Source of the DNA: a virus
Lineage: Duplodnaviria; Caudoviricetes
IMG/VR virus record: IMGVR_UViG_3300028833_000053
Reading direction: 5' to 3' (one strand)
Length of the DNA: 64,000 nucleotides
Of this stretch, positions 1-64,000 are shown piece after piece (the first letter of the stretch is position 1; every line of letters begins with the position of its first letter). The notes under the pieces are model-generated. The model was not told where the DNA came from and made no database searches. It saw only the letters and a program-made list of their open reading frames with translations. The position numbers and the translations under genes were made by a program.

Positions 1-283
1 AGTCCCTCTTGTACTCTGTCTCCCTTCCATCAACTTTCTCCATGAAAAGGTAGAGAAGCTGGATTGCCACGAAGTTCAACTTGCTGTCAAAGGTGGAAGT
101 GTCCTCCCACTCCCATCCGAACTGATGCTTTCCGTTCTTGTTCGGAATCTCGTATGACATCCAGTCCTCCTCGAACTTGGCATGGTCGTACATGATTCCA
201 AATGTGTCGTCCGTACCTTCCTTCACAATCACGATGAAGGAAGAGGAACTTGAATTGCTGACGTAATCTCCACGAATCTTCAT
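1..283 (-). CDS. Partial phage protein with N-terminal MKIRxDYVSNSSSSSF motif (runs off the window start)
   Basis: Manual translation from ATG at 283: MKIRGDYVSNSSSSSFIVIVKEG..., open to base 1; paralogous N-terminus to 284-673. Confidence 0.75.
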   Translation of the reverse strand, partial: MKIRGDYVSNSSSSSFIVIVKEGTDDTFGIMYDHAKFEEDWMSYEIPNKNGKHQFGWEWEDTSTFDSKLNFVAIQLLYLFMEKVDGRETEYKRD

Positions 284-673
284 TTAGCACTCCCGTCCAC
301 CATCAACATGACAGGCAATCTTGCAGTCCTTGCCGGTGAGCTTCTTGAGCAAGTCCTTGATGCGCTTCTCAAAGTCCTTCTTGGTCTCGTTGGGCTTCAT
401 GTCGGCATAGCCCAAGCCAATGCAGTACTCATCGTAGTATTCCTCAATGCCCCTGCAGAAGCGAAGGTCTGGGAACTTGTCCTCAAGGGCTTCAGCCAGC
501 TCGTAGGTATCCCAGTCATCGTAGTTGTCCTCCTCACCATCCTCCTTATGGTAATCTGACTTCACCTTGTTCAACTTCGCCATTTCAACAATGGCGTCGG
601 TTCCAAATTCACTGCCAACCACCATGAAGGAGCTGGAGCTGCTGTTGCTCACATAATCTATTCGGATTTTCAT
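284..673 (-). CDS. Phage protein with N-terminal MKIRIDYVSNSSSSSF motif
   Basis: ORF track 284..691; start moved to the ATG at 673 after an AAGGA SD; ends TAA. Confidence 0.8.
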   Translation of the reverse strand: MKIRIDYVSNSSSSSFMVVGSEFGTDAIVEMAKLNKVKSDYHKEDGEEDNYDDWDTYELAEALEDKFPDLRFCRGIEEYYDEYCIGLGYADMKPNETKKDFEKRIKDLLKKLTGKDCKIACHVDGGREC

Positions 674-687
674 TTTGCTTTCCTTTA

Positions 688-852
688 TCAAGCCCTTTTG
701 TCAACAAGTTCTTCAACTATGCCAAGAACTTCAGCGGCGAGAAAACCCACGGCAAGGGGGATTATTGCCCCGGTGTAGATGCACCAGGCACACACCCCTA
801 TCCTCAATAGGGATTTCGCAATGCTCACAAGAAGATGTCCAGTTGAATTCAC
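688..852 (-). CDS. Small membrane protein (54 aa)
   Basis: Manual translation from GTG: MNSTGHLLVSIAKSLLRIGVCAWCIYTGAIIPLAVGFLAAEVLGIVEELVDKRA; AAGGA SD; hydrophobic. Confidence 0.6.
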   Translation of the reverse strand: MNSTGHLLVSIAKSLLRIGVCAWCIYTGAIIPLAVGFLAAEVLGIVEELVDKRA

Positions 853-881
853 GTTGTTTTCCTTTATTGGTTTCTACTATA

Positions 882-2078
882 TTATACCAGATTGTCGTCG
901 TTTTGTAAAGTCATTAGCCTCTTTCGGACGTCGGTTATGACCTTCCCCATGAGGTTCTGACCCCTCCAGTTAGATGAATTCAAAATACCCTCGTCCTTTA
1001 TTCCCATCTTTATGCCCCAAATCCCATCAACTGGAGATGCCTCAACAAAGGTCTTTCCATCAAGTTCCGGGTCAAGCAGCTTCTTTCTGTGGTAGCCACA
1101 CTGCTGAAACCTCGCCAAATTGACTTCAAACATGATATTGTAGCGGACTTCATTCCACTTCTCATCGTCATAGCCCTTGACTTCCCTGCCAAGATGTTTG
1201 CACACCAGGGGGTCGTCATCTTCGTCAAGTATCTTCTGGGCGGTTTCCTCGTCGCCAAAGAACTTCGCCTTTGCCCACATGAAAGCCTGCTCGGTGCAGA
1301 AGAACTCATGCCTTTCGCCATTGAACGTCCAGAGGAACTTGCACCTTGCGAAATTGGACATGAAGCTGCCAAAGAAGAACACGTAGTTGTCAGTCACGCG
1401 ATAGCCATACTCGTACATCTTGTCCATCTTCTGCGGAGGGTCTTTGGACATTGGAGTTTTTCCCAATTCACGAAGTTCATTGAACTTCGCAAGGCGTTCT
1501 TCCCTTGTCCCATAAATGTCACGTTCCACGTTTCCTTTCAAAATGCCAGCATCTTCCAAAGATGCGATCACCTTCTTGAACAAACCATCAATCTCCTTGC
1601 GGTACTCGGCGTCCGTATCCCTGAACTTGTCATCAACTACTTTCACATTTGAGCAGTTGTCAAGGTCAAGGAACACGATTTTGTCGTAGCGTCCCATTTC
1701 CGCACAAAGCCTATCATACATCCCACACAAATCCTCGTACCTGATGTCCCCCAAAAGCCCATGTTGCCAAAGATATGTGGTATAGACATAAGCATCTAAC
1801 GGGGTTCGATCTGTCAAGTAGTTTCCATCTGGCATCTCGTCAATAATGTCAAGCTGCTCAACAAGGGTGTCGAAGATGATGTTTTGGCTTTCCCAATTCC
1901 CGTTCCTGTTTATCTTAAGTCCCTTTTCCTCAATCTTCTTTCGGTAGTCGCAACCAACGGTCTTGAACTCGTTTTCAGTTCCCTTGAACCTTTCAACAAT
2001 GTCCTTGATGAACGTGGACTTTCCAGTGTTTTGCGTCCCAACGACGCCGACGATGAATTTTCCTTCTTGCTTGCTCAT
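882..2078 (-). CDS. P-loop nucleotide kinase/AAA_28-like domain fused to NADAR (YbiA-like) domain
   Basis: Walker A GTQNTGKST and DRTPLD in the N-half; NADAR motifs SNF, EQAFMWAKAKFFGD, KHLGREV, VEASPVDGIWGI, GQNLMGK in the C-half. Confidence 0.85.
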   Translation of the reverse strand: MSKQEGKFIVGVVGTQNTGKSTFIKDIVERFKGTENEFKTVGCDYRKKIEEKGLKINRNGNWESQNIIFDTLVEQLDIIDEMPDGNYLTDRTPLDAYVYTTYLWQHGLLGDIRYEDLCGMYDRLCAEMGRYDKIVFLDLDNCSNVKVVDDKFRDTDAEYRKEIDGLFKKVIASLEDAGILKGNVERDIYGTREERLAKFNELRELGKTPMSKDPPQKMDKMYEYGYRVTDNYVFFFGSFMSNFARCKFLWTFNGERHEFFCTEQAFMWAKAKFFGDEETAQKILDEDDDPLVCKHLGREVKGYDDEKWNEVRYNIMFEVNLARFQQCGYHRKKLLDPELDGKTFVEASPVDGIWGIKMGIKDEGILNSSNWRGQNLMGKVITDVRKRLMTLQNDDNLV

Positions 2079-2118
2079 GATGAATTTCCTTTTCATACAA
2101 TTATACACAATGATAAAA

Positions 2119-7763: not shown

Positions 7764-7792
7764 AGTATACCACATTTCGTGATCAAAGTCAA
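7764..7792 (-). promoter_or_regulatory. Sigma70-type early promoter
   Basis: TTGACT-17 nt-TATACT. Confidence 0.8.
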
Positions 7793-8976
7793 GTACCCTA
7801 CAAAAGAAATGATAAGCACCTTTTAAGTACATCTTCTGAATTCTCGTTCCAGTCTTTCTACCATACAACAAATACCTTATAACCGTATTCTGTTTCAATT
7901 GCCTTGTTCCTGGCTTCGTCCCATTGCCAAACATCTTTCGCTAATTTCGTTGTCTTCCCAGGCATGTGAATAATGCTATCTGACTCGTAAACCAGAGGAT
8001 TAGCGTGCCAATAGTCTCCGTTGAACTCAATTATCCTTCCGGTTGTCTCGTCAAAGAAATCAAAGAACACATATTTGTCAATCTCATGAAGATACTTACC
8101 GAACTCCTTGGGATGTCCATCAAACCAAACCTTATGTGAATTCAATTCTTCATTCTCCATCAGCTTGTTGAACAGTTCCATCGCAACATTGGATTGTCCG
8201 AACTGATTATAACGTTCGTTGTAGTATTCCTCATATTTCTGACGGCCCAATTCTTCTCCATATTTCCTAACAAAAGTAGCCAATGTCAGAGCTTTTCCCT
8301 TGCAGGCATTCTCATACACCTCTCGTCCTTTTTCTTCTCCATACTTGTTTATGAACCAATCCAAAGTCTCAAATCCAATATACTTGTCATGAAATTCCTT
8401 GTGCCGTTGTTTCCCTTCTTCTTCACCATACTTCATAATGAAATACTCAAGGGTGCGCTTTCCCCTCATCTGCTTACATCGTTTCTCGTATAACTCCTGA
8501 CCCTTTTCTTTCCCATATTTCCGAATCAGATTATCCAATGATAAACTCGCCCTACTTGCCTTATGTGCATTCCAGATACGCAAACCATCCGCTTTCCCAT
8601 ATTTTGCGATGCACTTTTCCAATGTCAGATAATGAGTCCTTTTCCCGTTTTCATCTGTGTGGTACTTATCCAAAGTAGCTTCGCGTTTCTCATTCTGCTC
8701 TTCCAATAACCCAACAGCAAACAAAGGTTCGTCAGGAAACTGCTTCTTGTAGTCCTGCATGGTCATATCATGCTTCTTCAGATGAGTATTGGAAATGTTT
8801 CTCAACTTCGCTCCACACACTTTGCAGTGGACAAATGTATGAGTCTTGTCATACACAATGCGTTTCTCCTCTTGGTCTTTCAACCATCTTTTCTAACACG
8901 CTGGTGAAAGTCTGATGTGAGAAGCCACACCTTTCTTGTCCTTACATTCCTTACCACAGTATTCACAGTGTTCCAT
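7789..8976 (-). CDS. Putative homing-type endonuclease: zinc fingers, KYGxxxG repeats and a Vsr/DUF559-like nuclease domain (3 in-frame TAG)
   Basis: Readthrough joins MEHCEYCGKEC...PAC*KRW to ORF 7858..8883 and continues FVVW*KDW to TGA at 7789; FDFFD...IIEFNGDYWH motif. Confidence 0.7.
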
Positions 8977-16588: not shown

Positions 16589-16627
16589 ATAAATTCACCT
16601 CTTATTGATTCAAGAGTATTTACACCT

Positions 16628-16846
16628 TCACTTCACTTTTCCCATGGAACCGATCTTGTCAACAATGGCGTTGGCTTCCGTGAAGATGGTTTCAATGCGG
16701 GCAAGCAGAACCTTCTTGGTTGGCTTCTTGATGAGGTTGCTGTTCTCAATGGCGTTTTTCACTTCAAGCAGGGGATCGTTGCACTTCCTGAAGTTGTTTG
16801 ACACCGTTTCATACAAGTCTGTGATGGTCTCTTTATCCATGGACAT
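16628..16846 (-). CDS. Small hypothetical protein
   Basis: AAGGA SD; TTTACC-17-TATAAT upstream. Confidence 0.55.
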   Translation of the reverse strand: MSMDKETITDLYETVSNNFRKCNDPLLEVKNAIENSNLIKKPTKKVLLARIETIFTEANAIVDKIGSMGKVK

Positions 16847-16899
16847 TTCCTTTTAGATTTCAATTGGGTTATGTTCAATTATACCACAATCACCGGAAA

Positions 16900-16908
16900 T
16901 GGTAAATA
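16900..16908 (+). promoter_or_regulatory. TGGTAAATA late-promoter-like motif
   Basis: 5 nt before the ATG of the LRR gene. Confidence 0.65.
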
Positions 16909-16913
16909 TCTTC

Positions 16914-45850: not shown

Positions 45851-45872
45851 GTCATATGTCCTTTCTCCGTGA

Positions 45873-46631: not shown

Positions 46632-46775
46632 TTCAAGTACCTCTTCATTGAGCATTGTTTTCTCGTCAAATGCTCCTTTGCATAGTATTTACCATTCATT
46701 TCATTTTTTCAAAATCATAATCTATATCCTACTGATTGCCATTGACAGAATAAACAATTACATTAGTCATAATAT

Positions 46776-48703: not shown

Positions 48704-48706
48704 CCT

Positions 48707-50224
48707 TTACCCAAACATAAACCTTCTGAATTCAATTTTACGCTCGCTCCTTTCAGGAACAAGATAATTATACGTTTTTTTGGTGCGTTCAACATTGCCA
48801 TTGAAGTGCAAGGCGTATTTATCCACCGCCCCATCCACATCCGACATGAATTTCACAAACCCCGGGGGACGTTTGGGACTTATTACCCTAATTCCCCTGT
48901 CATGGCATTGCTTCCCGAAAACCATTTCCACGTCATAGTTCTTGTCCAGTTCTTGCTATGTTACCCCGAACTTCATCAATGATGGAACAAACGCAGCTGC
49001 ACCGAGTCCAAAGCGGTAATGCGATACCGGCCAATCCGTGTAAATGTTCCGCACTCTATCTTCCGAAGAACCCTGTCTAAAATCCTTTGATGAGTGAATG
49101 AAATATGCAGCAACAACACCATCGCCATTCCGCTTGAAACAATCCAAAGTGTTCTAAACATAGTCCATTGGATAATCTATATCATCGTCACATATGAAAC
49201 AGTAATCTTCTTGAAGTTCAGGCTTGTTCAAGAACAAATACCTCCCATTTTCCCTCAAGTTCTTCTCCCCCAACGTCACATGCAACTTACCTTGGTCAAA
49301 TTTCTTCAATTCCTCGGGGATCTCCTTGTACTCATTCAACCACAAGTAGAAGTTGTCGCATTGTGGCAACAACCGCTCAATGCACTGAAGCATCCACTTC
49401 TTTCTGTACGGGAACGATGCCATCAAGATAGAAACCTTCCTGGGTTTCTTGTACATTGTTTTGTAGGGTTTGGACTTGTCAACCATATCTATTTTGAATT
49501 CATTTCTGTTTGAATAGGGAGCGTGTATGTAAACATGTCCATCCAATATCTTTATCCGGTATTTTCTTCTGGGAAGCAAGTTCAAGTTAAGGTAGTAGTT
49601 GAAATACGCCTCGTCATAGGTTGATGGTGTCTTGTATTGCCACGTCTCAAAATTGACTTTCTTTCTGTCTTGGTCTACAGAACCCTATATGAAATGCGAA
49701 ATGTCTGACAAGACATTTTTGCTTCCGATGAAATGACAGTTTTGAACATATTGGAATTCGGAGGTATTTATTCTGGAAATATCAACGGATGAGCCAACCT
49801 TGTTGCAGTACAGTCTATAAAAAGATGATTTGGGAAATGCACAATGGGAAAATACCACCAAATCCTATTCATTATCACCAACCAATTCAGACAAATACAC
49901 CGGCTTCAAACAACGTGCATTGGATTGAATGAAACAAAAATAGTCAAAGGAATACTTGTCCATGCAATCCAATATGTATTGAAACTTGTGAAGTTTGTTT
50001 TCAGGTATATTCCTGGTCTATTCTGAATTCACTTCAACGAAGTCAATGTTTTCCCCTCGGAACAACGTCAAAACTTCTTTGTTATCCGTATATACCACAA
50101 ACTGCCTATCACAATCCACAAGGTAATTTTTCTTCATAGAATAATACCAATCCACAACATTCTATGTGAAGTTGTATTTTGGATTCAAGAAATAACTGAA
50201 TACTATGACCTTTGGCTTGAGCAT
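48707..50224 (-). CDS. Two-domain glycosyltransferase: GT6-like plus GT2-like (6 TAG)
   Basis: Manual readthrough: FVVYTD, FDYFCFIQSNA, YVQNCHFIG, YDEAYFNYY; then ASFPYR...ICDDDIDYP; TGGTAAATA at 50233-50241. Confidence 0.65.
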
Positions 50225-50304
50225 GTTGCCTGTATTTACCATTCAACATTAAACGAACTGGCCGGTTCTTTCAAACCGGCCATCGTAGTTTCAATCCAAA
50301 CCCA

Positions 50305-50637
50305 TTAGACGTTTTTCACCTTGTCGAGTATCTGGGAAATCTTCTCCATCAGTTTGTTCTTCAGATTGGTTCTCAACTTGTCCGATTTGGAGAAGAACAT
50401 CTGGATGCTGTACTCAAAGGAGAACTTCACGGTTTCCACGGAACTGACATAATACCCCAACAAAGAGAGGTCAAACAACAGGGAAACCATGTCGTCCTTT
50501 GACTTGTAGTTTGACGACACCCACCTTACAAACCCAGTGCTGTCCTGATAGCAGATGTCAAGCGAGGATTTGGCAAGGCAGTCCATCTTCCCTTCCGCAA
50601 TCCTCAACTGATGGACAACCGTGTATTCCCTCATCAT
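50305..50637 (-). CDS. Member of 5-copy paralog family
   Basis: LLFDLSLLGYYV ... RTNLKNKLMEKI. Confidence 0.6.
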   Translation of the reverse strand: MMREYTVVHQLRIAEGKMDCLAKSSLDICYQDSTGFVRWVSSNYKSKDDMVSLLFDLSLLGYYVSSVETVKFSFEYSIQMFFSKSDKLRTNLKNKLMEKISQILDKVKNV

Positions 50638-50642
50638 GTCAA

Positions 50643-50963
50643 TTACTTCCTGTTTGACTTCTTCCGGAACTTGGATTTCTTGAGATTGTAGAGAACCGCG
50701 TCAAGGCTCTTCCAACAATCGTCAAAGCACATGAAATCCCAAAGGCGGAAGAGGATTTGGGTATCCCAACCATCAGACACGGTGTCCCCGTTTTCCACCT
50801 TGTACAAATTCCTGTCGCAATCCGCCTTGCAACCAAGGGCGTATGCCTGCTTTCCCAGCTTCTTCAACCTGGGCATCAAGGGCTTCAACAAGTCCATCAA
50901 CTCGGACGCCTCCTTCTGGAGGCCCGTAAACTTTTCCTCAAACTGCTCAACCTTCATTTTCAT
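50643..50963 (-). CDS. Hypothetical protein
   Basis: AAGGA SD. Confidence 0.6.
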   Translation of the reverse strand: MKMKVEQFEEKFTGLQKEASELMDLLKPLMPRLKKLGKQAYALGCKADCDRNLYKVENGDTVSDGWDTQILFRLWDFMCFDDCWKSLDAVLYNLKKSKFRKKSNRK

Positions 50964-51155
50964 CTTCCTTGTCTACGTTTGCTTCCTCGAACAATTCCTC
51001 TTCGGCCTCGTCAGCCTCGTCAGCAAGCCCAATGCTTATGCGGAGAAAGGAAACGAACCCATAGCCGGCGGCGGCAATCGCCGCAACCCCTGCGCTGCAT
51101 CCCACGATCAATACTGCACTTGCCATTTTCTTTCTCCTGTTTGTTGTTCATCTGA

Positions 51156-51185
51156 AGTATATCACAGATGGGGTGGCTTTGTCAA
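51156..51185 (-). promoter_or_regulatory. Sigma70-type early promoter
   Basis: TTGACA-18-TATACT. Confidence 0.7.
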
Positions 51186-51189
51186 GGGG

Positions 51190-54100
51190 TCATCTGATAA
51201 TAATTGCATTTATTTCATCATCCCAAGAATGGGCGGGCTTCCAACTGCCCCCGCACATCCCATGTTCCAAAGTCCCACACTGAACCATGGAGGCTTCGGC
51301 ATAGTCCTCATAGTCCGTGGAATTGTCCACCACAACATCCCAATCATCTGGGAATGCCGCAATCCTGGCTTTTAACTCTCCGATTGTCATTTCTCAATAC
51401 CTCCCGCAAATTGCAACTGCGTTCACGTCCACCATCTTTCCATTCCCGTTGAACGTGAATAGTTCATAGCTCTGTTCTCGTTGTAGTGGCCGGGACGCAC
51501 ACCCTCGGCCTCCGTCATTGTGGCGAAATCCTGGACGTTCAACACAACCTCGTAGTCACCGGGATACTGTGCAAGCTGGGCTATCAACTCGTCAACTGTC
51601 ATTTCAAGACTCCTTGATTGGATTTATGTTGCGGGTTACAAGGGAAACAATTATGGTCATGCGGTAAAGAGTGTACTTTTCATCGTTCCACAACTTTATC
51701 TCCTCCTCAGATGCCTTTTGGAAGCGGTTGTTCACGTTCAAGTCAGTCTGCCAATCCATGTTCACGTCAAGTCCCTCCGAATACCATCCACGCCTGACGC
51801 ACCCCCAATGGATGAAATCAATGTCATATCCCAGTTTCCCGTTCACATACAGCAAGGCATCTTCAATGGTCTCAAACACGCGGTCCTTCACATCGTCAAT
51901 TGGAACTTCGCAACGGTTGGGTACGTCCCAACAATTCATGCCCGTCTGAGGATTGTGATCTTCCTCGAACTCGTAGAGCAGCCTTGATATGGAAACTTTA
52001 CTTGTCATCGTCTCTGCACAACACGTCATAGACGTTTTGAATCTGAGGATTCTGCTTGAACGTTCCACCAAACTCCCCAAAGTAGTAGCGCAATCTGTCC
52101 TTGGCTTCCTGTATGGTCGCCTTCAAGTTGTTGATTTCATCTTGCAACTTCCGGTGTTCGCAGTACATGGCCCCGCGGAAGGCGCAGTCTTTGCAGTCGC
52201 AAGTCATCATTTCGCTTTTCCTATCGCAATCGGCTGGTCAATGCGGTTGAACGAACGAATCACAATCCTATCGTTGTTCTTCTTGATGAGTTCCTGCACG
52301 GACTCCGGGAGGGAGTCTTGAAGATATTGCGTAAGCGAGTCCAACAGATGATCTGCGTCAAACTCTCCCGTGATGGTGAGAATCCTGCTTCCCTCTATCT
52401 TGGCGGTATCGTATTCGCCGCCGAAATGCACAAACCAATGCCCGGTCAAGTCCACCATGTTTGGCTTCTTCTTTTTATTGCCGGATTTGGATTTAACGTC
52501 CTTCTTCATCTTCATTGTCATTCTCGTTCTCCCTCTGTTCAATCAATTGCTTTCCCTTCACCACAATCGTAACCAGCCCCTTCAAGTCAACCGTCTTGAG
52601 GTCGCAGTCAATCAAGGGCTTCTTCAACTTGGCGAAAAGGTCAATGTCCTTCTTGGCGTTGTCCAACATGTATGGATTAGCCTTTGTCATTTCGGACATG
52701 ACATCCACGGCATACTTGCCATGGGCGCAATACTGGCAAATGAATGTAAACAATTCGTTCATGCAGCGTACCTTGCGTAGATTTGTTCCAAGTCATCAAC
52801 GTAATTATAGGTGTCCGAAGTTGTGGCAACACCCTTGATGGAAAACGCCATGTGCTGGAACAGCCATCCGGACTTGAACACCTCAATGCTCAATCCTTTG
52901 CTGCAGCAATAGGCGCGTAGGTCGGCCTCCAACGGGCCAATCCACCAACGAAGTCCATCCGCAGTGTTGCGGATTGTGAACTCTCTCTTCAACGTGTCAT
53001 CCATTTCGTTTTCTCTCCTTACCTGTTGGCTCGTTCAACGGCATCCCAGTCAATGCCATCCATGATGTGGTCGAGGCATGTCCTTGGATAGTGGAACCAG
53101 AACTTTTCGTGGTCGTCGTCCTCAAGCATCAGACCGTACATGTCTGACTTTGGTCTGACCAAAAGCCTTGAACCTTGGCAATATCCAACTGCTCTGCGCT
53201 TGATTTCGCGTTCCATCGTCTTCATGTCAACGCTTTGGCGATAGTCAAGGTTGAGACGGTCACCATAATCATACTCGTAGTTGTCCCATGTGAACAACTC
53301 AGGATTCAATTCTGGAATTTCAAATGTCATTGTCAATCCTCAAACAGGCAGTCAAGTCCAATGAACCTCGTAATCCACCAATGGTTGCGCTTGTTGGTCA
53401 TCGCGGGACCGTCAAGGTTCAGCATTTCGTTGTCCTCGGTGATGTAAACGTCCTCAAACGCCTGGTTCTCCGCCCGCTTGCAGGCAATGATGCCAAGGAT
53501 GAGGGGCGAAAGGATGATTTGTATGATGAGCTGAAACGGAAAGTACAGAATCATCAATATGGTCTTTTTCACTTCTTTGCTGTTCATTGTTTACCTCCAT
53601 CACTTTGAAAGTTTCCGAGCAACGATTTTCGCCACTTCTCCGGCAACCATCTTCTCGAACTTCTTGGACTTGAAATCAACGTTTTCGACAATTCGCTCCG
53701 CGGCCTCTTCAACCTTGCAACGCAGCTTTGTCTTTATGATTTCATCAATCATCCCCAGAAGCGGACCCAAATGATTGTCTCCGTACTGCCGCCCATCCTT
53801 GAAAAGGACATAATTCAAGCTGCTGTCATCCTGCAGGATTTTCACCACCCTTTCGGTAATGTACTTGTCAAGATCAATGTGCAACTTCTTCTCCACAAAC
53901 TTGCCAACAACCCCATACGCGACGTTGGTTAAAATTCGCTCCGCGTCATTCCCATTGCACATCTTCTGCATAAGAATGTTTTCCCAAACGTCATGGGAAA
54001 TACGGCTCATTTCATCGTCGCTGAGGTAGTCCTCAAGCTTGAAGTTCATATCAACATTCATTTGTCAGATTCCCTTCATTTCCTCTTGAATGAACTTGTC

Positions 54101-54850
54101 CAAGTCCTGCAGGGTCTTGAAATGACGCTTCACGTCAACCTGCGAGACGAAGGTGTAGCCGGAACCCTTGAACTGGTCGGTCTCAATGTCGCGCTCCCAA
54201 CCAAGGTAGTTCATGGTGCAAGCCAGGACGAGGACTGCCCAGGACATGAAGTTGAACCCCCAATTTTTCACCCGTTTGTTGCCATACACAATCCAGCAAC
54301 GCTCGGTGCCCATCTTGTAGCGGCGGCAAACCTCAAAGTGCTGATGCTTGCCCTTGTCTGCGGCATACATTTCCTTCACCCACGCGGAGATGTCCTTCTT
54401 GACATCAGCCTCGTCCTTGACATCAAACTCGCGCTCGTCAACGATGTTGTCCTCGCCACGGCGGTTGTCGGTCCACTCAAAAGTCAAACGCATCTTCATT
54501 TTCACTTCTCCTTGTTTGTTTCAGTTTCCCTTGCAGAGCGCAAGGAACAACTCGTTGTCGCACTTCGCCCAAAGACGGCGATACTTCAACCCGTACTTCT
54601 CGTTGAGGGCGCAAGCCGTCTTGAAAAGCGCCGTGTTCGCAATCTCGGGGAACTTGGAAAGGGCATCCTGGCACTGTCCACACCACTCCCAACCCTGCCC
54701 ATTTCCACCCGTTATACGGTAGGTGATGCTGGCGTACTCGTCTCCGGGGTGGCGGTGGCTGGTTGTGTCATCAAAGGTGACGAACACGCGGTTGCCCTTG
54801 CGTCCACGGCCATGCAGGTCGATGTTTCCAAGATGGTAAGTTGACTTCAT
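51190..54850 (-). other. Array of about 12 small TAG-free hypothetical early genes (e.g. 51190-51390, 52493-52762, 52759-53004, 53019-53336, 53333-53587, 53600-54061, 54065-54505, 54521-54850)
   Basis: Tightly packed minus-strand ORFs with SD sequences downstream of the promoter at 54884-54912. Confidence 0.65.
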
Positions 54851-54883
54851 TTTACTACTCCTTGTTTTCCTCAGAACACCTAC

Positions 54884-54912
54884 AGTATACCAAAAACGGG
54901 TCAGGAAGTCAA
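54884..54912 (-). promoter_or_regulatory. Sigma70-type early promoter
   Basis: TTGACT-17-TATACT; leader identical to that at 31911-31942. Confidence 0.8.
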
Positions 54913-54992
54913 TACCCCTTGATAAAATAAAGAATGGTTGGAAAGTGCAATCTTTCCAACCAATTCCCCCTATTTCTTTCAATTATGGAAAC

Positions 54993-55949
54993 TTACCCAA
55001 TCTCGCAACTCCAGTCGCTTGTGTCGCAGGCGTCCCCAAACGCAGGATATGAATTGAACTCGTTTTCGCTTCCTGAAATCGGATGTGAAAGGCGCAAACC
55101 GTCCTTCTCCAAGTCTTGAACGAACTTGTCAACCATTGCAACATCTTCCGGCGTCAGGTTGCTGTCATCCCCGTACATGATATAACAAGTTGCCCAATTG
55201 GGAATTCCCTCAACAACATTGTCGTTGTCGTCAATGCCAACATCATTCCAAACCTGTTCATCGTCAATGTCTGCCATTGTCTCGAACTCCCCATCACTCT
55301 CGTCGTAGGGATAGATGTGGCGGCTAGCCTCATCACCCCAGAACTCGCGCTCGTTAGTGATGTCGAAGTCAGTCTCGTCAAAGTCCAGGTCAGGATACTC
55401 CTTGCGGATTAGGTTGCAAACTTCCTCCTTCAGGCAGTTGCTCTCCATGTCGTAGTCGTTGGGGAGAACCAAATCGTAGTCAACAACGAAGTTGTCTGTG
55501 TTCCCAGCCTCAATCCCAGCTTCGGGGAAATCCCTCGTCCACATTATCTCCACTTCACCCTCGGAAGCTGACCAGTCCCTTGGATCGTCCTCATACCCCT
55601 CCGTGAAGTTGCCACGTATGGGATTGCAGGTCTTTGACTTGTACACATCGTCTCCGTCCTCCTTCTTCTGAAGGGAATTCCACTGAACGGAAAACTCCTT
55701 GAACCCATCCCCCTCGGCATTCTTCATCGTGGTCTCGTAGAGGTCACTGTCCTGAAGCAATTCGTGGATTGTGGTGTCCGCGTTCATAAGATACTTGGAA
55801 TCCGCGTACTTGTGTCCTCTTGGATCATAGAAGAGGATAACGCCGTTTTCGTCATCCGCTATGCACTCGATGCCATTCTGTTCACAACTTGAAATGGCAT
55901 CGGCGATGTATTCAAGTCCAAGTTTACCTTCTGTTACTAAAACTTTCAT
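54993..55949 (-). CDS. Very acidic hypothetical protein
   Basis: Asp/Glu-rich 318-aa ORF; TGTAAATA variant upstream. Confidence 0.65.
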   Translation of the reverse strand: MKVLVTEGKLGLEYIADAISSCEQNGIECIADDENGVILFYDPRGHKYADSKYLMNADTTIHELLQDSDLYETTMKNAEGDGFKEFSVQWNSLQKKEDGDDVYKSKTCNPIRGNFTEGYEDDPRDWSASEGEVEIMWTRDFPEAGIEAGNTDNFVVDYDLVLPNDYDMESNCLKEEVCNLIRKEYPDLDFDETDFDITNEREFWGDEASRHIYPYDESDGEFETMADIDDEQVWNDVGIDDNDNVVEGIPNWATCYIMYGDDSNLTPEDVAMVDKFVQDLEKDGLRLSHPISGSENEFNSYPAFGDACDTSDWSCEIG

Positions 55950-55999
55950 TGTATATGTCCACCTTGATTGGTTATCAAGTGTATTTACAATGAACCACC

Positions 56000-56821
56000 T
56001 CAAAACTGGGGAATGTCTGCGTTCAGCTTCGCCTTGGCTTCGTTCCTCTTCACCCAATCGGTGCAAATGCGCTCGGTAGGCGACTGGAACGTGGAATCAA
56101 CCTCGTGGAACTGGCAACCATCAACGGGGTGGAAGTGGCAGATGAACTTGCGAACCTTGGCATCTGGCTCAATGTAGCCACCCTTCTTCAGAATGCGCTC
56201 GTACATGGAAAGCTGAAGTCCATAGGTTGTGAACTCGCAATCGGGAAGGTCATCAACCGGAGAAAGGAACATCTGCCCCCACTCGTTGTCCTTGCGTATG
56301 CGCTTGTTGGTTTTCCAGTCCACAAGAAGGTACTCGCCAGTCTGCCTGTGCTTCCCAATGAGATCAACGGTACCCGCCACGTTGATGCTTGGGTCAAAGA
56401 TGATTTTCTCGGACTCGAAATCGTAGGGGCGTTCTTTCATCTTGCGCACCACGGCAATGATTTGCTGGAACACGGTCTTCTGATCGTCCGTGAACGTGGA
56501 ATCATCGACGAACTCGCCATTGAAAATGCGCTCGGCGACGGAGTGCATCTTGATTCCGTGGTTGCAAGCCTTTTTGGAAATGTTCGCCCAACGCTTCTTC
56601 ATTTCCTCCTGCGTCACGCCCTCGCGCTGGGCGCATAGAGCAGACATTCCCTCAAGGTCAAAGGGCTTCTGGTACTTGTGTATGAGCGTTGTCACGCTGA
56701 TGGGCTTGTACTTCAACCTCTGGTCTCCGTCAAACACCTTGTAGACGTGTCCAGCCTCGCTGAACTCCACCTTCAATCCATTGTAGTTTACTATTGACTT
56801 CTTTTCCGAACTTACTGCCAT
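56000..56821 (-). CDS. PD-(D/E)XK nuclease (Cas4/RecB-like exonuclease)
   Basis: SVTTLI, GIKMH, E...AGTVDLI...LVDWKT...QLSMY. Confidence 0.85.
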   Translation of the reverse strand: MAVSSEKKSIVNYNGLKVEFSEAGHVYKVFDGDQRLKYKPISVTTLIHKYQKPFDLEGMSALCAQREGVTQEEMKKRWANISKKACNHGIKMHSVAERIFNGEFVDDSTFTDDQKTVFQQIIAVVRKMKERPYDFESEKIIFDPSINVAGTVDLIGKHRQTGEYLLVDWKTNKRIRKDNEWGQMFLSPVDDLPDCEFTTYGLQLSMYERILKKGGYIEPDAKVRKFICHFHPVDGCQFHEVDSTFQSPTERICTDWVKRNEAKAKLNADIPQF

Positions 56822-56839
56822 TGCATTGTTTCCTTTACT

Positions 56840-57544
56840 TTAATACTTCAATCTATGATACTTGTCTGGATTGATGCCAAACTTCAAGAGGGTTTCCCTT
56901 GCCTCGCGGTTGGTTTCGTGGCACTCGTTCATGGAACGCTCCACTGATTCAAGTTGGGTGCGGTTGTAGTCAAGGTTCTTTGCGATGGCGTTCTTGCGGG
57001 ATTTTATGATTCCCTTGTCGTCCTCAATCTCCTGCACGAACTTCCCAACGCGATTCAACATCATATCAACTTCCGCGGCGTCCTTAAAGTTGTGAATCTT
57101 GTCGGGAAACGCCGCTGCCACGGCCAACTCACACCCAAGAGACTCCATGAACTTCAGGGCTTTCGTGTTGAGGCACAACTCCTTGCTTGGATTCAAGAGA
57201 TTCGTACAATCGCAGACCAATCCCCTGAAGAAGATATGTCCGCTGCGCTCCACAATCTGATAGTCATATCCCGCGCCATCCACAAACGCCCTGATGATTT
57301 GGGGAGAGATTGGGACAATCTCCGGACGCATAACGTCAATGAACTTGCGGAAGAACTTCAACTCCACAAGAACATCAGAAGGATCCTTTTTGGACTGGTA
57401 GACTATAAAGCAAGCCTTGAACCGCGTGTTGATGTTCTTCACCTCCACGCCATAACGCTTCTCCGTGAACCACGCACCCCGCTTGTAGTCGGGGATCTCA
57501 ATGGCACCGGCCCGGTCAACCTTTATCTTTACCAAGTTCAACAT
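56840..57544 (-). CDS. Hypothetical protein with C-terminal coiled coil
   Basis: AGGAG SD; 234 aa. Confidence 0.65.
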   Translation of the reverse strand: MLNLVKIKVDRAGAIEIPDYKRGAWFTEKRYGVEVKNINTRFKACFIVYQSKKDPSDVLVELKFFRKFIDVMRPEIVPISPQIIRAFVDGAGYDYQIVERSGHIFFRGLVCDCTNLLNPSKELCLNTKALKFMESLGCELAVAAAFPDKIHNFKDAAEVDMMLNRVGKFVQEIEDDKGIIKSRKNAIAKNLDYNRTQLESVERSMNECHETNREARETLLKFGINPDKYHRLKY

Positions 57545-57593
57545 TGGCTTCTTCTCCTATCCACTCTATTATACCACAAATTGGCCAATTTGT

Positions 57594-58298
57594 TTACAGC
57601 ACAACCTCTATGCCATACTTCTGGCTCAAGGTGTTCATGGCGTCCGCCGCGTCGTCGCATATGTCCTGCAAGTCAGTCTCGCAACTCGCCAAATCGTCCT
57701 GACCCTTCTTCACCAACTTCAAGATGTCATTCCGTTGCTTATCAAAATACTTATCGCGTATCTGCCACTCAGTAGTGTGGAAATCGTCAAAGGCGTTCCA
57801 AGCGGTCTCCGCATCGTCCATGCTCTTCACCCCTGGGTACTTCTCCGCTATGGCAATGAGCCTCCCGGTCTCCGAAACCAAAAACGCTGGAAGGGTGGAT
57901 GCGATGGTGTCAAGGTTTATGCCCCAAACCTGCGTTTTGATGTGCGCCATGGAAAACTTGAACAGAACCCTATCGTCTTTGACAATGACTTCGGCCTTGT
58001 CCGTCCAACTATGGCCAAACCACCATTCGCCTTTCTCCGTCTTGAACAACCGATTGAAAGTTGAGGGGCTTACGGGAGTCCAAATGGTGTTGTTGTCCTC
58101 AACCCCACTGTGGAAGATCTCAAACACGACATCATGCTTTCCAAGATGGGCGGCAACGATGAACGAAAGCATGATGGAGTCCCTTCCATGCACCAGATGG
58201 ATGCGCCTGTTGTACTTGTACAAACGTGTCCTATGGTCGGGAATCTCAGCCGTTTTCAGGCAAGCAAAGTGTTCAATTATCCATTTCCTGTATGCCAT
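57594..58298 (-). CDS. Hypothetical protein with C-terminal coiled coil
   Basis: AGGAG SD; first gene after the promoter at 58331-58359. Confidence 0.65.
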   Translation of the reverse strand: MAYRKWIIEHFACLKTAEIPDHRTRLYKYNRRIHLVHGRDSIMLSFIVAAHLGKHDVVFEIFHSGVEDNNTIWTPVSPSTFNRLFKTEKGEWWFGHSWTDKAEVIVKDDRVLFKFSMAHIKTQVWGINLDTIASTLPAFLVSETGRLIAIAEKYPGVKSMDDAETAWNAFDDFHTTEWQIRDKYFDKQRNDILKLVKKGQDDLASCETDLQDICDDAADAMNTLSQKYGIEVVL

Positions 58299-58367: not shown

Positions 58368-59165
58368 TCAATCAAACTTCACGGCAAACTCATCAGTGAG
58401 TTTCTTTTTCATTTTATCAGTAAGGGGAATCGGATGGGCAAAATGTAGATTCCCAGTTCCATTCTACTGAACCATATAAGTACCCTAATGACGAAAGTAC
58501 AAATATCCATCCTCACGTGGAATGTCAATATATGTAATTTTCCCATATCGTCCCATCTGTTGCATAGTCTTGGTGTGATTGCAAAACAGTGGACACAATT
58601 TATACCGATATTTTATTTTATGCGTATTAATAATTGATGATTGAAATATTGAATGATGTCCTCCCGTTTTCTATCTATTCCCCCAATATCTAGCCAATAA
58701 CGGTCCATTATTTCCATACGCAAATTTATATCCACTATTATATCCGCATAAAACTATGTCGGAATCCGAATTGGCTTCCAGCACGTCCCTTGTGTCCTGA
58801 ACTGAAAACTTGTTCGCAAAATCATCATCGTCTATTCTGGATAAAATGACAATATCATTTTGCTTCCAAACATTCAACATATAGTTTTCCATACACTTAT
58901 CGTGTGGCATAAACCTATACTGAAAGTTCAATTTTTGTTCTTCAAATTTTTGCTGCAATTCATATAAACGTGTGACCTTCCATTCAGGGTTGATTAGGAT
59001 CATCAACTCAAAATCCAAATTGGTTTGGTTGTTCAAAGAAGGTATTAAATTTGACATCAAATAACCAATGCGTCTCTATATCAAATTTTCATCCATCAAA
59101 TCCATACCAACACCCATATCCTACGATAATAAACGTGTCTATACTATATGCTTTATTTTATCCAT
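58368..59165 (-). CDS. Putative rhamnosyltransferase-like GT-A protein (about 6 TAG)
   Basis: MDKIKHIV*TRL...LIPSLNNQTNLDF...SRIDDDD; ends TGA at 58368. Confidence 0.65.
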
Positions 59166-59167
59166 TT

Positions 59168-60292
59168 TTAATTTTCCCTAATAGCGTAATTGTTTGCCAA
59201 CTAGCATATCCCCTAAACCCATTCATATTTTGTCAATGGATTCTACTGGTGTGAACGTATCATTTTCCACAACTACCCACTAAAATTATTATAATTCACA
59301 TGTGATTGAACCAGCATTGCCGCCCGTTCTTTTTCATTATTTACATTGGGTAATTCTTCCATAGCCTGGGCAAACCAATGTTCCTTGTCGGTCCATGACA
59401 AAAGCCCCTTGGAATCCTCGCACATTATCTTGTCCAAAACTGGATATTGGGTTGCCAGCAAAATTTGGCGTTGGATGTAGGAACGTCCTTTGCGGTCACC
59501 ATGAAAGAAATGGTTTATCTCAACACCAACGTCCTTCAAGATTGGCTTTTCCAATTTCCCTGACAATCCTTCTGCAATTTTCCTGACTTCATCGCGTGAA
59601 AACACTATGAACCAAGGTTGATCTTGCCTTGCACCATACAACTCGTTCCAGAACAAACTGTCACCGCCACCAAGAGGAAGATAGTTGAAACCCCCTATTG
59701 CATCTACAAATGTCTTTGACGTACAAAACACCATTCCAGGAACGTTCTATTGAACATCTATCGTCCTTCCATTCACGATGCAACTTGTAAACGACTCTCT
59801 ATCAACCGAATCGGGTATTCTATTATTGTCCTAGTCCAAATAATGAACGGTGTGAAAACCCTGAGTAAACAGGCAGTGGTCAAGAGCGTCACTTACCTTG
59901 CTGAACCAATCAACATCCTCCAATGGAGACATATCAGAGTCTATGAACATGAGTTTTTCATTCTTCGCCATTTTTGCGGCCATGTTCCACAGATGTTCCT
60001 TCTGGAAAAGATACTTGTTGGAATCATTGCCATCTATGCGTATGTATTTCATCTATGACGGCAAGTCGGACTTGTTGAATGTGAAAACGCCATTAAACCC
60101 CAATTCAAGGAACATCATTTCATTTGGCAAATGAGACTGTTCCATCCAATGAGATATGGCGTTCAACGTTGCCACTTTGCGGGACTTATTATGCACGGCG
60201 TCATAGAAACAACTGATGGCTGTCATATCCACCAACTAGTTGTTTTTTCTACGAAACCCGGATGCCGTCTTTGGAAGTCCAATGAATATCAT
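59168..60292 (-). CDS. GT-A glycosyltransferase paralog 3 (about 8 TAG)
   Basis: FQKEHLWN...FIDSD...TQGF...GGGDSLF...HFFHG; ends TAA at 59168. Confidence 0.7.
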
Positions 60293-60918: not shown

Positions 60919-62403
60919 TCATGAAAAATTGGAATGGGTGTGAACAACGTCAAAAATGTCCTTCCCCTTGTCGGAGCCAATGACGCGCAAGAGGATTTCG
61001 TTTATCTCGTCTCTGTACTTCTCGGGAAACTTTATGTTCTCCATCATCTTTCCGGAGTTCTTCTTCTTGACTATGCAGGATGGTTCAAGTTGCTGCATCT
61101 CATTGGCAATCTCCAACAGGCGGATTCTGTCCTGTCCCCTAATCTTGTTGAAGAACGTTGGCATATCGTCAAGCATACCCTTCTGGTACGTTATCTCCCC
61201 ATCGTATAGCCTCCAATGCCAATAGCAGAAACTTGAATTCAAAAAACAATATGCAAGGTCTCGCGTTTCCTCATCCTTGAACAGAATGATTCGCTTGCCA
61301 GACCTATACAAATCGGAGACATATCCAACAGTGAAGTAGCGGCAAGTTGTGGCGAAGTTGATGTAGTAGTCCCCATCTTCGTCTATGAAGTCCTTGAACG
61401 TTTCATTCTCGGAAAACTTCCGCCACCTCTGCAAAGTCTCTTCAAGTTGGGGAAAGCACTTGGCGTATCTATCTTCCCTGGGTCTCTGGGGAATGTTGCC
61501 AACCATGCTTTCCAAGAACTCGGGTTGAAGCACCTTGTCCCGCTCCCCATTCCTGAAACGAACCATCCCGGCTATGCGCAGTCCAATGCCCCAATTGCGG
61601 TTGTCCGTCACCAAAATGGCTGGACGTACCTGGTTTTGCGTGTTGGAGTTGAACACGCCATGCTTCCTCCCATTGAATATCTGACCAGGCGTGTTGTCAA
61701 ATGGAATGATGAAACCAGAATATCCCGAACTCAATTTCTTGCGCAGCAACTTGAACTTCTCGCGTCCCAAATAGTTTTGAGGTGTGAGAAGCACAGTCCC
61801 TTTGCATCCGCTCTCACATAGAATTTTCTCCATCATCGCGGCATAGAGTTCATGCGTCTCCTGCACTATCATTGTCTCCCACCAACTTTTCGGAACCTCT
61901 TCAACCTTGGCATAAGGTGGATTGGAAATCACCTTGCAGTCAACAGGAAGGTTCACGTTTTCGTCAAGAAAGTCGCCGGGCCTTGAATGAATGTACCCCA
62001 CAACGTCGTCACCATATATCTTGCCAATGGCATTGACGCAAATATAGAGGGCAAGGGCATCTTTGTCATAAAGCCACAACCTCCCAGACCTTATGAGTTC
62101 CCTCGCTTGTTCTCTTCCAATCAACTTCAAGTACGCCAATATGAGATTCCCAACGCCGCAACACACATCGCAAACGTTCTTGCCGGGAAGTTTGTCAAAC
62201 CATTTCGCCATGAGAGTTGCAACGTCATCCGGTGTGAAATACTTGCCCAAGGACTTCTTGCTGTACTTGTTGACGTGCGCAAGCCCAATCTCGTAAAGTT
62301 CCCAGTATTTTTCAACAGGGACATCCGACTTCAAGATGATGTCCCATGCTGCGTCAAAGCCAAATTCGTCTATGGCGTTCAAGTATGTTTCCACGTTTTC
62401 CAT
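60919..62403 (-). CDS. N6-adenine DNA methyltransferase
   Basis: GKYFTP, motif I DVCCGVG, motif IV SNPPY. Confidence 0.85.
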   Translation of the reverse strand: MENVETYLNAIDEFGFDAAWDIILKSDVPVEKYWELYEIGLAHVNKYSKKSLGKYFTPDDVATLMAKWFDKLPGKNVCDVCCGVGNLILAYLKLIGREQARELIRSGRLWLYDKDALALYICVNAIGKIYGDDVVGYIHSRPGDFLDENVNLPVDCKVISNPPYAKVEEVPKSWWETMIVQETHELYAAMMEKILCESGCKGTVLLTPQNYLGREKFKLLRKKLSSGYSGFIIPFDNTPGQIFNGRKHGVFNSNTQNQVRPAILVTDNRNWGIGLRIAGMVRFRNGERDKVLQPEFLESMVGNIPQRPREDRYAKCFPQLEETLQRWRKFSENETFKDFIDEDGDYYINFATTCRYFTVGYVSDLYRSGKRIILFKDEETRDLAYCFLNSSFCYWHWRLYDGEITYQKGMLDDMPTFFNKIRGQDRIRLLEIANEMQQLEPSCIVKKKNSGKMMENIKFPEKYRDEINEILLRVIGSDKGKDIFDVVHTHSNFS

Positions 62404-62461
62404 CACGGTCAATTATACCTTGGCGAATGGTAAATACTCGAAACACCAATGGGACAATGAA

Positions 62462-63055
62462 ATGGCTGAACATACATATACTAGATTCGTTTTTGACAAT
62501 GAAACGCATGAGGACTGTGAAATAACAGGAACATTGGATTAGCAGTGGTTCATAGACAAAGGTTGGTTCAGCGAAGATGAATTGGAATGGCACGTCACAT
62601 TCATTGAGATTGACATCGGAAGCACTGTTGAAAACATTGGGGACGGTGCCCTTGCCGAACAAATCGCCCTGGGGAAAATACATATACCCGATACGGTGAA
62701 GAGCATTGGAAATGGAACATTCTATGGATGCACCAAATTGGCAAACGAAGATGGATTTGTCATTGTCAGAGACTGGCTATACGATTACCGCAACGATGGC
62801 ACAAAAATAAGAATTCCCGGCAATGTCACAAACATTGGAGAGGGGGCTTTCAACTGGTGTGAAACGATTGAAGAAGTTTTCATACCCAACAACGTGAAAT
62901 ACATTGGAGAACGTGTCTTTGACGGTTGCGACAAACTTATGTGCGTGAATACGGAAAAAACCAAGGCTGAAATCCAGTCCATGAACTATCCTATTTGGGA
63001 TCTTTACCCTGGTTGCGTCATACATTGTCAAGATGGTGACATAATCATAGAATAA
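62462..63055 (+). CDS. BspA-like leucine-rich repeat protein (TAG at 62540)
   Basis: MAEHTYTRF...GTLD*QWF in frame with ORF 62582..63055; IPDTVKSIGNGTFYGC repeats; TGGTAAATA at 62428-62436. Confidence 0.85.
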
Positions 63056-63084
63056 GCCTGTCCCTTCTTTCAAGTATAATTGAA

Positions 63085-63354
63085 ATGAAAGGACAGCGCA
63101 ACATGACTGTACTCACGATATATACCAACAAATTTGATTCAAGGGAAAGCGTATTTGGAACCGGGATGTCCGGCAAGGTGTTTTTGGAAGAGGCGAATGG
63201 AAATAGCGAATCCGGACAGGAATTCAGAACAATTGACGAAGCTTTGGACTTCTGCGAAAACAAGAAAACAAAAATTGACGGAATAGAATTCATGTACTTA
63301 TCCAATGACGGAACACAGAAGTTTGCAAAGTTCGGAACGTCGAAGGAATGGTAA
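63085..63354 (+). CDS. Small hypothetical protein
   Basis: ORF following the LRR gene. Confidence 0.55.
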   Translation: MKGQRNMTVLTIYTNKFDSRESVFGTGMSGKVFLEEANGNSESGQEFRTIDEALDFCENKKTKIDGIEFMYLSNDGTQKFAKFGTSKEW

Positions 63355-63366
63355 ATAGAAACTGTC

Positions 63367-64000
63367 ATGAAAATACTTAACACATCATACAGAGACGTAG
63401 TTGCAACTGAGGACGCACTTCAAAAAACTCCCGTGTCTGAACTCCAGTTGACAACCGAACTCATTGAAAATTCCCTCATACACATAGTCCAATACATTTC
63501 GGGTGATGCGTCAAAGAACACCGCGAAATACGAATCAATGAAAATGAGGGTTCAGGACTTTGAGCAGAAGATATACGAGGCTGTGCAAAACACGTTCAAC
63601 ACCTCATATTGGGACACGCATTCGGTGGCGTGGAAGACTAGCCACGCAGACAGTACAGAAACCCTGCCAACTGCCCTGGCTGAAGCATCATTCGAGAAGA
63701 TGATTGCCTATCTTGATAGTGACGCACCAGCAGAAATTCCTGCAATTGATCCAAACCGTTTCATAAAGCATTTGTTCTTTGACTTTGACGTGGTGAAAAG
63801 ATACATAGTGAAAAAGAACAACGGGTTCAACAGAAGACTGGATGACATAGAAATACGGCTTGACTACCTTGATTGCTTTTTCCAGACCAACATGAATTTC
63901 CACACAACCGACAGCAAGGGATGGACAAGCAAATCGGTGAACCACGACAAAAACGAAAACAACGATTATTGCCAAATGGTCATCCTTGATGGAAACAAAA
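63367..64000 (+). CDS. Partial late protein (runs off the window end)
   Basis: Manual translation open from ATG 63367 to the end; TGGTAAATA at 63349-63357. Confidence 0.7.
   Translation, partial: MKILNTSYRDVVATEDALQKTPVSELQLTTELIENSLIHIVQYISGDASKNTAKYESMKMRVQDFEQKIYEAVQNTFNTSYWDTHSVAWKTSHADSTETLPTALAEASFEKMIAYLDSDAPAEIPAIDPNRFIKHLFFDFDVVKRYIVKKNNGFNRRLDDIEIRLDYLDCFFQTNMNFHTTDSKGWTSKSVNHDKNENNDYCQMVILDGNK

Follow-up and report, generated by a model that had tools for sequence, protein, structure and literature searches.

The 64,000-nt stretch of DNA analyzed here (the window) comes from a tailed virus, IMG/VR record IMGVR_UViG_3300028833_000053, and is the reverse strand of positions 201268-265267 in a single 433,895-bp virus contig with 46.6% GC. 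A 127-bp terminal overlap indicates that the assembly is complete. The phage is a T4-like jumbo phage of ~434 kb. Its portal is of the gp20 type (PF07230, E 5e-64), its large terminase (TerL, PF03237) of the T4 type, and its major capsid protein of the gp23 type; it also encodes a tail completion protein resembling gp15 and a protein homologous to gp55, the late sigma factor of T4 (match to PDB 7d7c_F, E 1.8e-5). Our subject is the codon TAG, which interrupts many genes of this phage and which a preliminary description of the window had taken for a sense codon, probably glutamine (Gln).

Genes were called over the whole genome with a codon-usage-scored procedure that allows only TAA and TGA as stops. 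The call returns 443 genes, 117 of which (~26%) hold a total of 292 in-frame TAGs. TAG accounts for ~7% of all Gln codons in the genome and for 9% of those in the window. Within the window the call gives 19 genes with 56 in-frame TAGs, and three more TAG genes were lost from it as overlaps (58368-59222 (-), 62336-63055 (+), and 16605-17561 (+)), all with Pfam matches. About 16 window genes are solidly rejoined across TAG, in agreement with the more than 15 genes first reported as split only at this codon, and the positions reported with them (46359, 18420, 62540, 45686 in FTFS*GDFP, 7858 in VVW*KDW, and the CAA at 48203-48205 in AAFSQSDFP) are all correct. The Pfam domains that run across a TAG in the window are UDP-glucose (UDPG) dehydrogenase, two or three BspA-type leucine-rich repeat (LRR) domains, and rhamnosyltransferase-like, Stealth-like, and Ros/MucR-nuclease domains. 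The TAG-bearing genes discussed below, with lengths in amino acids (aa), are these:

7789-8976 (-): 395-aa Ros/MucR and restriction endonuclease-like gene; TAGs at 8893, 7858, and 7798, the last of them two codons before the TGA stop
18228-18854 (+): BspA-type LRR gene; TAG at 18420
21156-22733 (-): 525-aa gene; TAG at 22689, where G002 (a relative introduced below) has CAG
23248-26499 (-): 1,083-aa gene; 4 TAGs
26521-28206 (-): 561-aa gene; 3 TAGs
32261-42331 (-): 3,356-aa open reading frame (ORF) with no Pfam family, ending in TGA; 12 in-frame TAGs at 41861, 41696, 40892, 40826, 40349, 38768, 37538, 36869, 36161, 35768, 35063, and 33164
42417-43148 (+): 243-aa gene; TAG at 43137, two codons before the TGA stop, CAG in both relatives
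43151-44776 (-): 541-aa Stealth-CR2-like gene; 2 TAGs at 44126 and 44084, with Gln at the 44126 site in G001, the other relative
44792-45898 (-): 368-aa member of a paralog family; 4 TAGs at 45686 (the FS*GDFP site), 45368, 45206, and 44846
45873-46655 (-): UDP-glucose/GDP-mannose dehydrogenase-like gene (PF03721, PF00984); TAG at 46359 (codon 99), in the NAD-binding domain
47312-48703 (-): 463-aa paralog; 4 TAGs at 48572, 48458, 48179, and 47954, with Gln at the 48179 site in G002
48707-50242 (-): 511-aa gene; 6 TAGs
58368-59222 (-): rhamnosyltransferase-like gene (PF11316); 7 TAGs at 59178, 59139, 59121, 59076, 58671, 58485, and 58464
59168-60292 (-): 374-aa gene; 8 TAGs, the last four at 59273, 59243, 59213, and 59201
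62336-63055 (+): BspA-type LRR gene; TAG at 62540

The comparison set consists of two complete IMG/VR relatives taken whole, G001 and G002 (418 and 414 kb), alongside the phage's own genome, G000. In tblastn searches against the two relatives, 172 in-frame TAGs in 68 genes are flanked by homology, with at least 10 aligned residues on each side. The stops that fall within protein homology are 186 TAG, 17 TGA, and 11 TAA in G000, as counted with scored gene calls, and 321 TAG, 5 TGA, and 3 TAA in the relatives; the TGA and TAA cases sit where genes join and the alignment is poor. As a trinucleotide, TGA is 3.6 times commoner in G000 than TAG (9,646 versus 2,640). The TAGs also lie inside the Pfam domains of conserved genes, with four in the portal domain (PF07230), three in that of TerL (PF03237), four in the gp15-like domain, three in the Stealth domain, and a further case in UDPG dehydrogenase, and the gp55-like domain likewise spans TAGs. 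Frames are broken by TAG only and frameshifts are never involved, and the affected genes include essential ones such as the portal, the terminase, and the late sigma factor. As judged from these comparisons, which bear out the original assignment of TAG as a sense codon, read-through of TAG is real and exceeds chance, and TAA and TGA appear not to be read through and to remain the stops.

Individual genes illustrate the effect. From stop to stop, the longest ORF in the window has 632 codons under table 11 and 3,367 codons when TAG is sense. The corresponding 3,356-aa ORF falls into more than 10 in-frame pieces under table 11, and its homologs in G001 and G002 (30-44% identity) continue across the TAGs; a megablast search of GenBank phages gave no match to it. 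In the dehydrogenase, PDB alignments continue through TAG 46359 (LPGTA*KLTG), which lies between the STxxPGT and NPEFL motifs and is AAG in G002. The rhamnosyltransferase-like gene has 95 homologs. Table-11 fragments of portal, terminase, and glycosyltransferase genes already sit in public protein sets, among them a 128-aa protein that matches, at 99% identity, the part of the glycosyltransferase at 58368-59222 enclosed by two TAGs. This public fragment, too, ends at TAG 58671. The densest TAGs in the window, up to 2.5% of codons, occur in a sugar-related cluster on the minus strand (43151-50242 and 58368-60292) that includes the Stealth-like, UDPG dehydrogenase, and rhamnosyltransferase-like genes and a TAG-rich paralog family (44792-45898, 47312-48703, and 59168-60292). 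Genes of this cluster have few or no homologs in G001 and G002.

Simpler measures proved to be poor discriminators. Naive coding density, a comparison that the preliminary description had proposed, rises from 87.8% under table 11 to 92.6% with TAG as sense, but it also reaches 91.2% with TGA as sense. Since TGA-as-sense lengthens ORFs too, naive ORF length and coding density were both dropped as evidence; neither measure discriminates because off-frame ORFs are long in this genome. Counts of junctions of the form long ORF, stop, long ORF keep a TAG excess after trinucleotide correction, yet this is weak support because adjacent same-frame genes create a background of TGA and TAA. A reciprocal tblastn that took in every six-frame ORF of G001 and G002 was contaminated by off-frame ORFs, and scored gene calls were used in its place.

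Read-through need not be complete at every site. TAGs are over-represented in the first and last tenths of the called genes; the 5' excess is probably due to start codons called too far upstream, and the last tenth holds 41 TAGs compared with ~22 per middle decile. Several observations weigh against TAG being sense everywhere. The TAG of g366830_367477 aligns with the TAA stop of both relatives, that of g341525_343213 aligns with the TGA of G001, and three other genes hold a C-terminal TAG beyond which the tails diverge in length and sequence. In the window, the gene at 59168-60292 (-) has four TAGs in its last 35 codons, and because homology has ceased by then and this part runs into the start of the following gene, TAG 59273 may be a real or leaky stop. 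That all convincing genes end in TAA or TGA, as first described, is true only in part; the claim is insecure as a general statement because some TAGs, in at least two genes outside the window, sit at the relatives' TAA or TGA stops, or, as in the three genes with C-terminal TAGs, before divergent tails. Stop-codon turnover between the relatives proved uninformative here: all 76 of 76 aligned terminal stops are identical, and a comparison without differences has no power to reveal exchange of TAG for TAA or TGA.

TAG may therefore still terminate at some genes, leakily, through release factor 1 (RF1) of the host; alternatively, stops may have been lost and short tails tolerated. A dual role would have TAG specify Gln when the suppressor tRNA is abundant and direct termination via host RF1 early and at some gene ends, and a minority of the annotated in-frame TAGs near 3' ends would then be real, leaky stops. 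The excess in the last tenth of genes, the TAGs at relatives' stop positions or before divergent tails, the four TAGs past homology in 59168-60292, and the failure to find a phage release factor 2 (RF2) or anti-RF1 function in the genome are all consistent with it. Near-terminal TAGs that can be aligned are often CAG or CAA in the relatives (e.g., 43137 and g80586), however; the last 8 codons of the 443 genes hold 16 TAGs where ~8 are expected by chance; and a stop lost to TAG and followed by a short tolerated tail gives the same pattern. We regard the dual role as plausible, although at somewhat short of an even chance, and it adds to the explanation that TAG is read as Gln and does not replace it.

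The amino acid inserted at TAG was approached through the codons that stand opposite it in related sequences. Codon-level alignment with the relatives gives 85 sense counterparts at 63 TAG sites, of which 49 are Gln (37 CAG and 12 CAA), followed by Lys (12), Glu (5), Thr (4), Ser (3), and Tyr (1), with no Leu. The counterparts were also scored with substitution profiles derived empirically for every amino acid from these alignments, and Gln leads Lys, the best alternative, by 139 log-likelihood units. In the reverse direction, the G000 codons opposite the relatives' TAGs encode Gln in 45 cases, Glu in 17, and Lys in 11. A protein-level tblastn alignment covers 189 sites, and in its 135 well-conserved contexts Gln (59) again exceeds Lys (18), with a conserved TAG in 17.

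These counts carry a bias that weighs against taking them at face value: CAG to TAG is a single transition, so the close-relative counts are partly shaped by mutation. Distant homologs are free of this shortcut. Among 72 distant portal homologs (36-48% identity), 56 have Gln at residue 156, a TAG here, and portal residue 44, also a TAG here, is Gln in all 9 of the 9 close homologs covering the site. Codon 127 of the gp55-like gene (NPFAYFT-TAG-ICW) corresponds to the Gln of T4 gp55 NPHAYITQACF (PDB 7d7c_F) and is Gln in both relatives. The CAA counts, together with the Gln columns of distant homologs, speak against mutation as the whole story. The distant-homolog columns of TerL hold little information, as its TAG sites fall in variable or gapped columns.

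The window's own sites are noisy, with Q, K, E, D, S, and T all present in the relatives at TAG sites in good contexts, because the window evolves fast (30-45% identity to the relatives). The single paralog pair from which Gln was originally deduced, TAG 45686 opposite the CAA at 48203-48205 in the 463-aa paralog, is real but weak, as other paralogs and G002 have Lys there; alignments of paralogs within the genome show Gln most often, but in small, non-independent counts that were set aside. The early caveat that TAG 7858 might correspond to Glu was fair, as G002 has Asp at this site, at only 26% identity. At TAG 59139 distant homologs have a hydrophobic column, and a 74%-identical homolog has Gln. 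One site speaks for a different residue: TAG 58671 aligns to an aromatic column with Tyr in 51 of 71 distant glycosyltransferase homologs. The Tyr is not kept in closer homologs, and TAG and TAY differ by a single base. Of all residues, Gln has by far the strongest support and, on this comparative evidence, TAG almost certainly means Gln, a result that extends the original proposal well beyond its paralog pair.

A candidate decoder was found where the preliminary description had suggested looking, in the rest of the genome. ARAGORN detects 36 tRNAs, although no tRNA-Tyr or tRNA-Gly, and one of the 36 has a CUA anticodon (genome 410487-410576, complement, outside the window). It is 90 nt long, with a 7-bp acceptor stem, a canonical T arm, an encoded CCA end, discriminator base A73, and a long variable arm of ~18 nt, and a sigma70-like promoter, TGGATA-16-TATAAT, lies ~55 nt upstream. 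A homolog, a 91-nt CUA tRNA annotated as tRNA-Gln, is present in the crAss-like phage cr113_1 (NC_055896.1, Suoliviridae), and close copies occur in ten IMG/VR contigs of 6.5-103 kb, mostly 50-100 kb. The tRNAs share an identical anticodon arm (ACGGT-CTCTAAA-ACCGT), near-identical D, long variable, and T arms, and an encoded CCA that only one copy lacks. In contrast, the acceptor stem of the cr113_1 tRNA is completely different from ours, though fully paired, and its carrier phage belongs to an unrelated family. Among the 12 members of the family the body is almost invariant and A73 is found in 12 of 12, and there are four different acceptor stems, all fully paired, with compensatory changes at six pairs. 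The CUA tRNA belongs to a real tRNA family. RNAalifold supports the acceptor, D, and T stems of the family but does not return a cloverleaf in the anticodon and variable region, and the long-arm cloverleaf is for this reason drawn from ARAGORN and from alignment to the tRNA-Sec model.

In E. coli-type systems, the identity elements recognized by glutaminyl-tRNA synthetase (GlnRS) lie at the acceptor end (G73, a weak 1-72 pair, 2-71, and 3-70), on a type-I body with a short variable loop. The CUA tRNA departs from this canonical tRNA-Gln pattern, having a long variable arm, A73, and a freely varying acceptor stem. Such a freely changing stem is unexpected in a presumed GlnRS substrate, given that the E. 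coli enzyme recognizes the acceptor end. Domain searches, in which control genomes matched, found neither the GlnRS/glutamyl-tRNA synthetase (GluRS) catalytic domain (PF00749) nor the release factor domain (PF00472) in G000, G001, or G002, so the other two components that the preliminary description had proposed seeking did not turn up. Because all three genomes lack the catalytic domain, we infer that a host enzyme charges the tRNA, which we take to be a Gln-inserting suppressor.

Several features of the decoding machinery count against this assignment. The long variable arm with A73 is an architecture typical of Ser, Leu, or Tyr tRNAs, and the CUA tRNA falls below the threshold of the Rfam tRNA models, its best match being tRNA-Sec at 33.6 bits against a cut-off of 47. 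In addition, G002 has 305 in-frame TAGs, yet no CUA tRNA was found in it by pattern search or by relaxed and intron-aware ARAGORN runs. In published surveys, no more than 40-60% of recoded phages have a suppressor tRNA (bioRxiv 10.1101/2021.08.26.457843; PMC13037316). In G001, an unrelated 77-nt CUA tRNA with an 8-bp acceptor stem by ARAGORN occupies the syntenic site (268611-268687, complement).

It is therefore worth weighing whether TAG is sense for another residue, whether Tyr, Leu, or Ser, as the type-II-like body, A73, and the tRNA-Sec match might suggest and as the Tyr/Phe column at TAG 58671 would allow for Tyr, or Lys or Glu, the next commonest counterparts. The counterparts themselves speak strongly against this, with Tyr, Leu, and Ser together far behind Gln in the 85 and Lys trailing by the likelihood margin given above; TAG stands at conserved Gln positions of the portal and gp55; and the phage group of the homologous crAss-like tRNA showed TAG as Gln by mass spectrometry, a result for the group and not for this particular tRNA (PMC9523058). 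We consider a residue other than Gln improbable. The remaining view, that the TAGs are true nonsense in split genes, decaying pseudogenes, or assembly errors, can point to public table-11 calls that list the fragments separately (the 128-aa P0241 and truncated portal and TerL homologs), but it is contradicted by the present data and deserves next to no credence, since only TAG breaks frames, without frameshifts and in essential genes, protein conservation continues on both sides of 172 sites in three complete genomes, and a cognate CUA tRNA is encoded.

The use of TAG is associated with the sequences upstream of genes. Of the 117 TAG genes, 37 have a GTAAATA motif in the 100 nt before the gene, as against 34 of the 326 TAG-free genes (Fisher p = 5.5e-7), and the longer TGGTAAATA precedes 22 TAG genes compared with 9 TAG-free genes (p = 8.7e-8), with a median position for this type of motif of ~-35 from the start codon. 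The GTAAATA motif resembles the T4 late promoter TATAAATA, which is read by gp55. Conversely, the -10-like GGTATAAT is found at 2 TAG genes versus 26 TAG-free genes, and the strong Shine-Dalgarno sequence AAGGAGAA at 0 of 117 TAG genes versus 25 of 326 TAG-free genes. TAG genes carry (A)ATGGTAAATA(C) upstream instead of AAGGAGAA/GGTATAAT. Examples of the strong Shine-Dalgarno sequence in the window stand before a block with little TAG:

50305-58298 (-): ~17 mostly TAG-free small and medium genes, readable in the standard code
50643-51032 (-): called 129-aa ORF inside this block; TAG at 50973

The upstream motifs suggest that promoters and translation starts form two classes in step with the code. 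The genes carrying TAG include those for the portal, TerL, the gp15-like protein, a tail-repeat protein, and the gp55-like sigma factor, the last of which is preceded by a TGTATAAT box and has TAG as its codons 24, 127, and 149. Two genes weigh against a strict division: the gp23-like major capsid gene (genome 46269-47474 (-), outside the window, 537-aa frame) and DNA polymerase B (genome 24985-25815 (-), also outside the window, 1,008-aa frame) both lack TAG, and the presence of TAG in late genes is for that reason a tendency and no rule. The association fits a published model in which recoding acts as a late switch, delaying late functions (bioRxiv 10.1101/2021.08.26.457843), with the timing here read from motifs, and the TAGs in the gp55-like gene suggest that the late sigma factor may itself be gated by the code change.

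Taken together, the phage very probably reads TAG as Gln (NCBI table 15) in roughly one gene in four, most likely by means of its own CUA tRNA, with TAA and TGA as the stops. Decoding would most likely depend on the phage CUA suppressor tRNA, expressed from the sigma70-like promoter and presumably charged by a host enzyme. TAG-free genes could be translated at once in a standard-code host, whereas TAG genes would give full-length protein only after the suppressor tRNA is present. Dependent in this way would be, among others, the giant ORFs, the window's cluster of glycan enzymes, and the genes for the portal, terminase, gp15-like protein, tail, and gp55-like late sigma factor. The sequence comparisons show that TAG is read through, that it stands for Gln in evolution, that a CUA tRNA gene is present, and that TAG genes are associated with a late-type promoter motif; we infer which side charges the tRNA, when suppression sets in, and how well it competes with host RF1. 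It is also possible, though we propose it only tentatively, that two layers of control are stacked. Sigma70 transcription would yield the tRNA and the gp55 mRNA; as that mRNA has TAGs at three codons, no sigma factor would be made until the tRNA accumulates, and the GTAAATA late promoters, many of them before TAG genes, would fire thereafter. The same proposal holds that charging of the tRNA departs from canonical GlnRS acceptor-stem rules, as is suggested by the free acceptor stem in a family shared by crAss-like and T4-like phages.

TAG-to-Gln recoding (table 15) is known in crAss-like phages, Lak megaphages, the 'gemstone' clades, and other gut phage clades (bioRxiv 10.1101/2021.08.26.457843; PMC9523058), and metaproteomics has demonstrated it in crAss-like phages (PMC9523058). 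The present phage resembles these code-15 phages in having in-frame TAG in only a subset of genes, with a tendency toward structural genes and with early genes that may be compatible with the standard code, and in carrying a CUA suppressor tRNA, with Gln as the putative residue and mostly with no aminoacyl-tRNA synthetase. It differs in its size (434 kb), GC content, and T4-like portal, gp23, gp15, gp55, and TerL, being neither crAss-like nor shown to be a Lak phage, and in having no RF2 that we could find, ~26% of genes with TAG, a TAG-free capsid gene, and a late sigma factor gene with three TAGs. RF2 and GlnRS occur in only some code-15 members and are non-defining. What marks code 15 at the level of sequence, namely read-through of TAG alone in conserved genes, alignment columns with Gln, and a tRNA with a CUA anticodon, can be recognized here, and the phage represents a further lineage of known code-15 recoding and no new kind of system.

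Amber suppressors of E. coli provide a second comparison: supE is a tRNA-Gln, supF a tRNA-Tyr, and supD a tRNA-Ser, and their CUA anticodons read UAG in competition with RF1. Here, by contrast, the tRNA is phage-borne and its use is genome-wide, and it combines a body like that of type-II supF and supD with a meaning like that of supE.

The findings extend TAG-to-Gln recoding to a T4-like jumbo phage lineage and have a practical side. Annotation of this phage and its relatives with table 11 shatters about a quarter of their genes and misses ORFs of 3,356 and 4,834 aa. The density gain of ~5 points is below the 10% cut-off used in some screens (PMC13037316), so threshold screens may overlook partly recoded lineages. 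The TAG-bearing gp55-like sigma factor and the late-promoter-like motif before TAG genes offer a testable link between code change and late transcription. What stands out is the long-variable-arm tRNA family shared with crAss-like phages, the TAG-bearing late sigma factor with its promoter association, and the hints of a terminator role for TAG.

A few further observations concern the tRNAs and genes of these phages. A tRNA array at genome 310623-323588 contains normally short-loop tRNAs (three Thr, Asn, and Ala) that ARAGORN reports at 81-91 nt, and Rfam gives several tRNA-like matches there that ARAGORN missed. The window itself holds a tRNA-Arg(TCT) of 89 nt at 19523-19611 (-). The large terminase gene, continuous in G000, is broken up in G001 (341393-343831) and G002 (100714-104379). 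In G002, ~1.6 kb separates the N-terminal part (query residues 5-135) from the remainder, while the gap in G001 is only ~0.5 kb, and an intron, an intein, or a homing-endonuclease gene could account for the insert. Finally, a TAG-free gene at 882-2108 (-) of the window encodes a 408-aa fusion of a deoxynucleoside-kinase/AAA-like N-terminal part and a NADAR domain (PF08719, E 5e-36).

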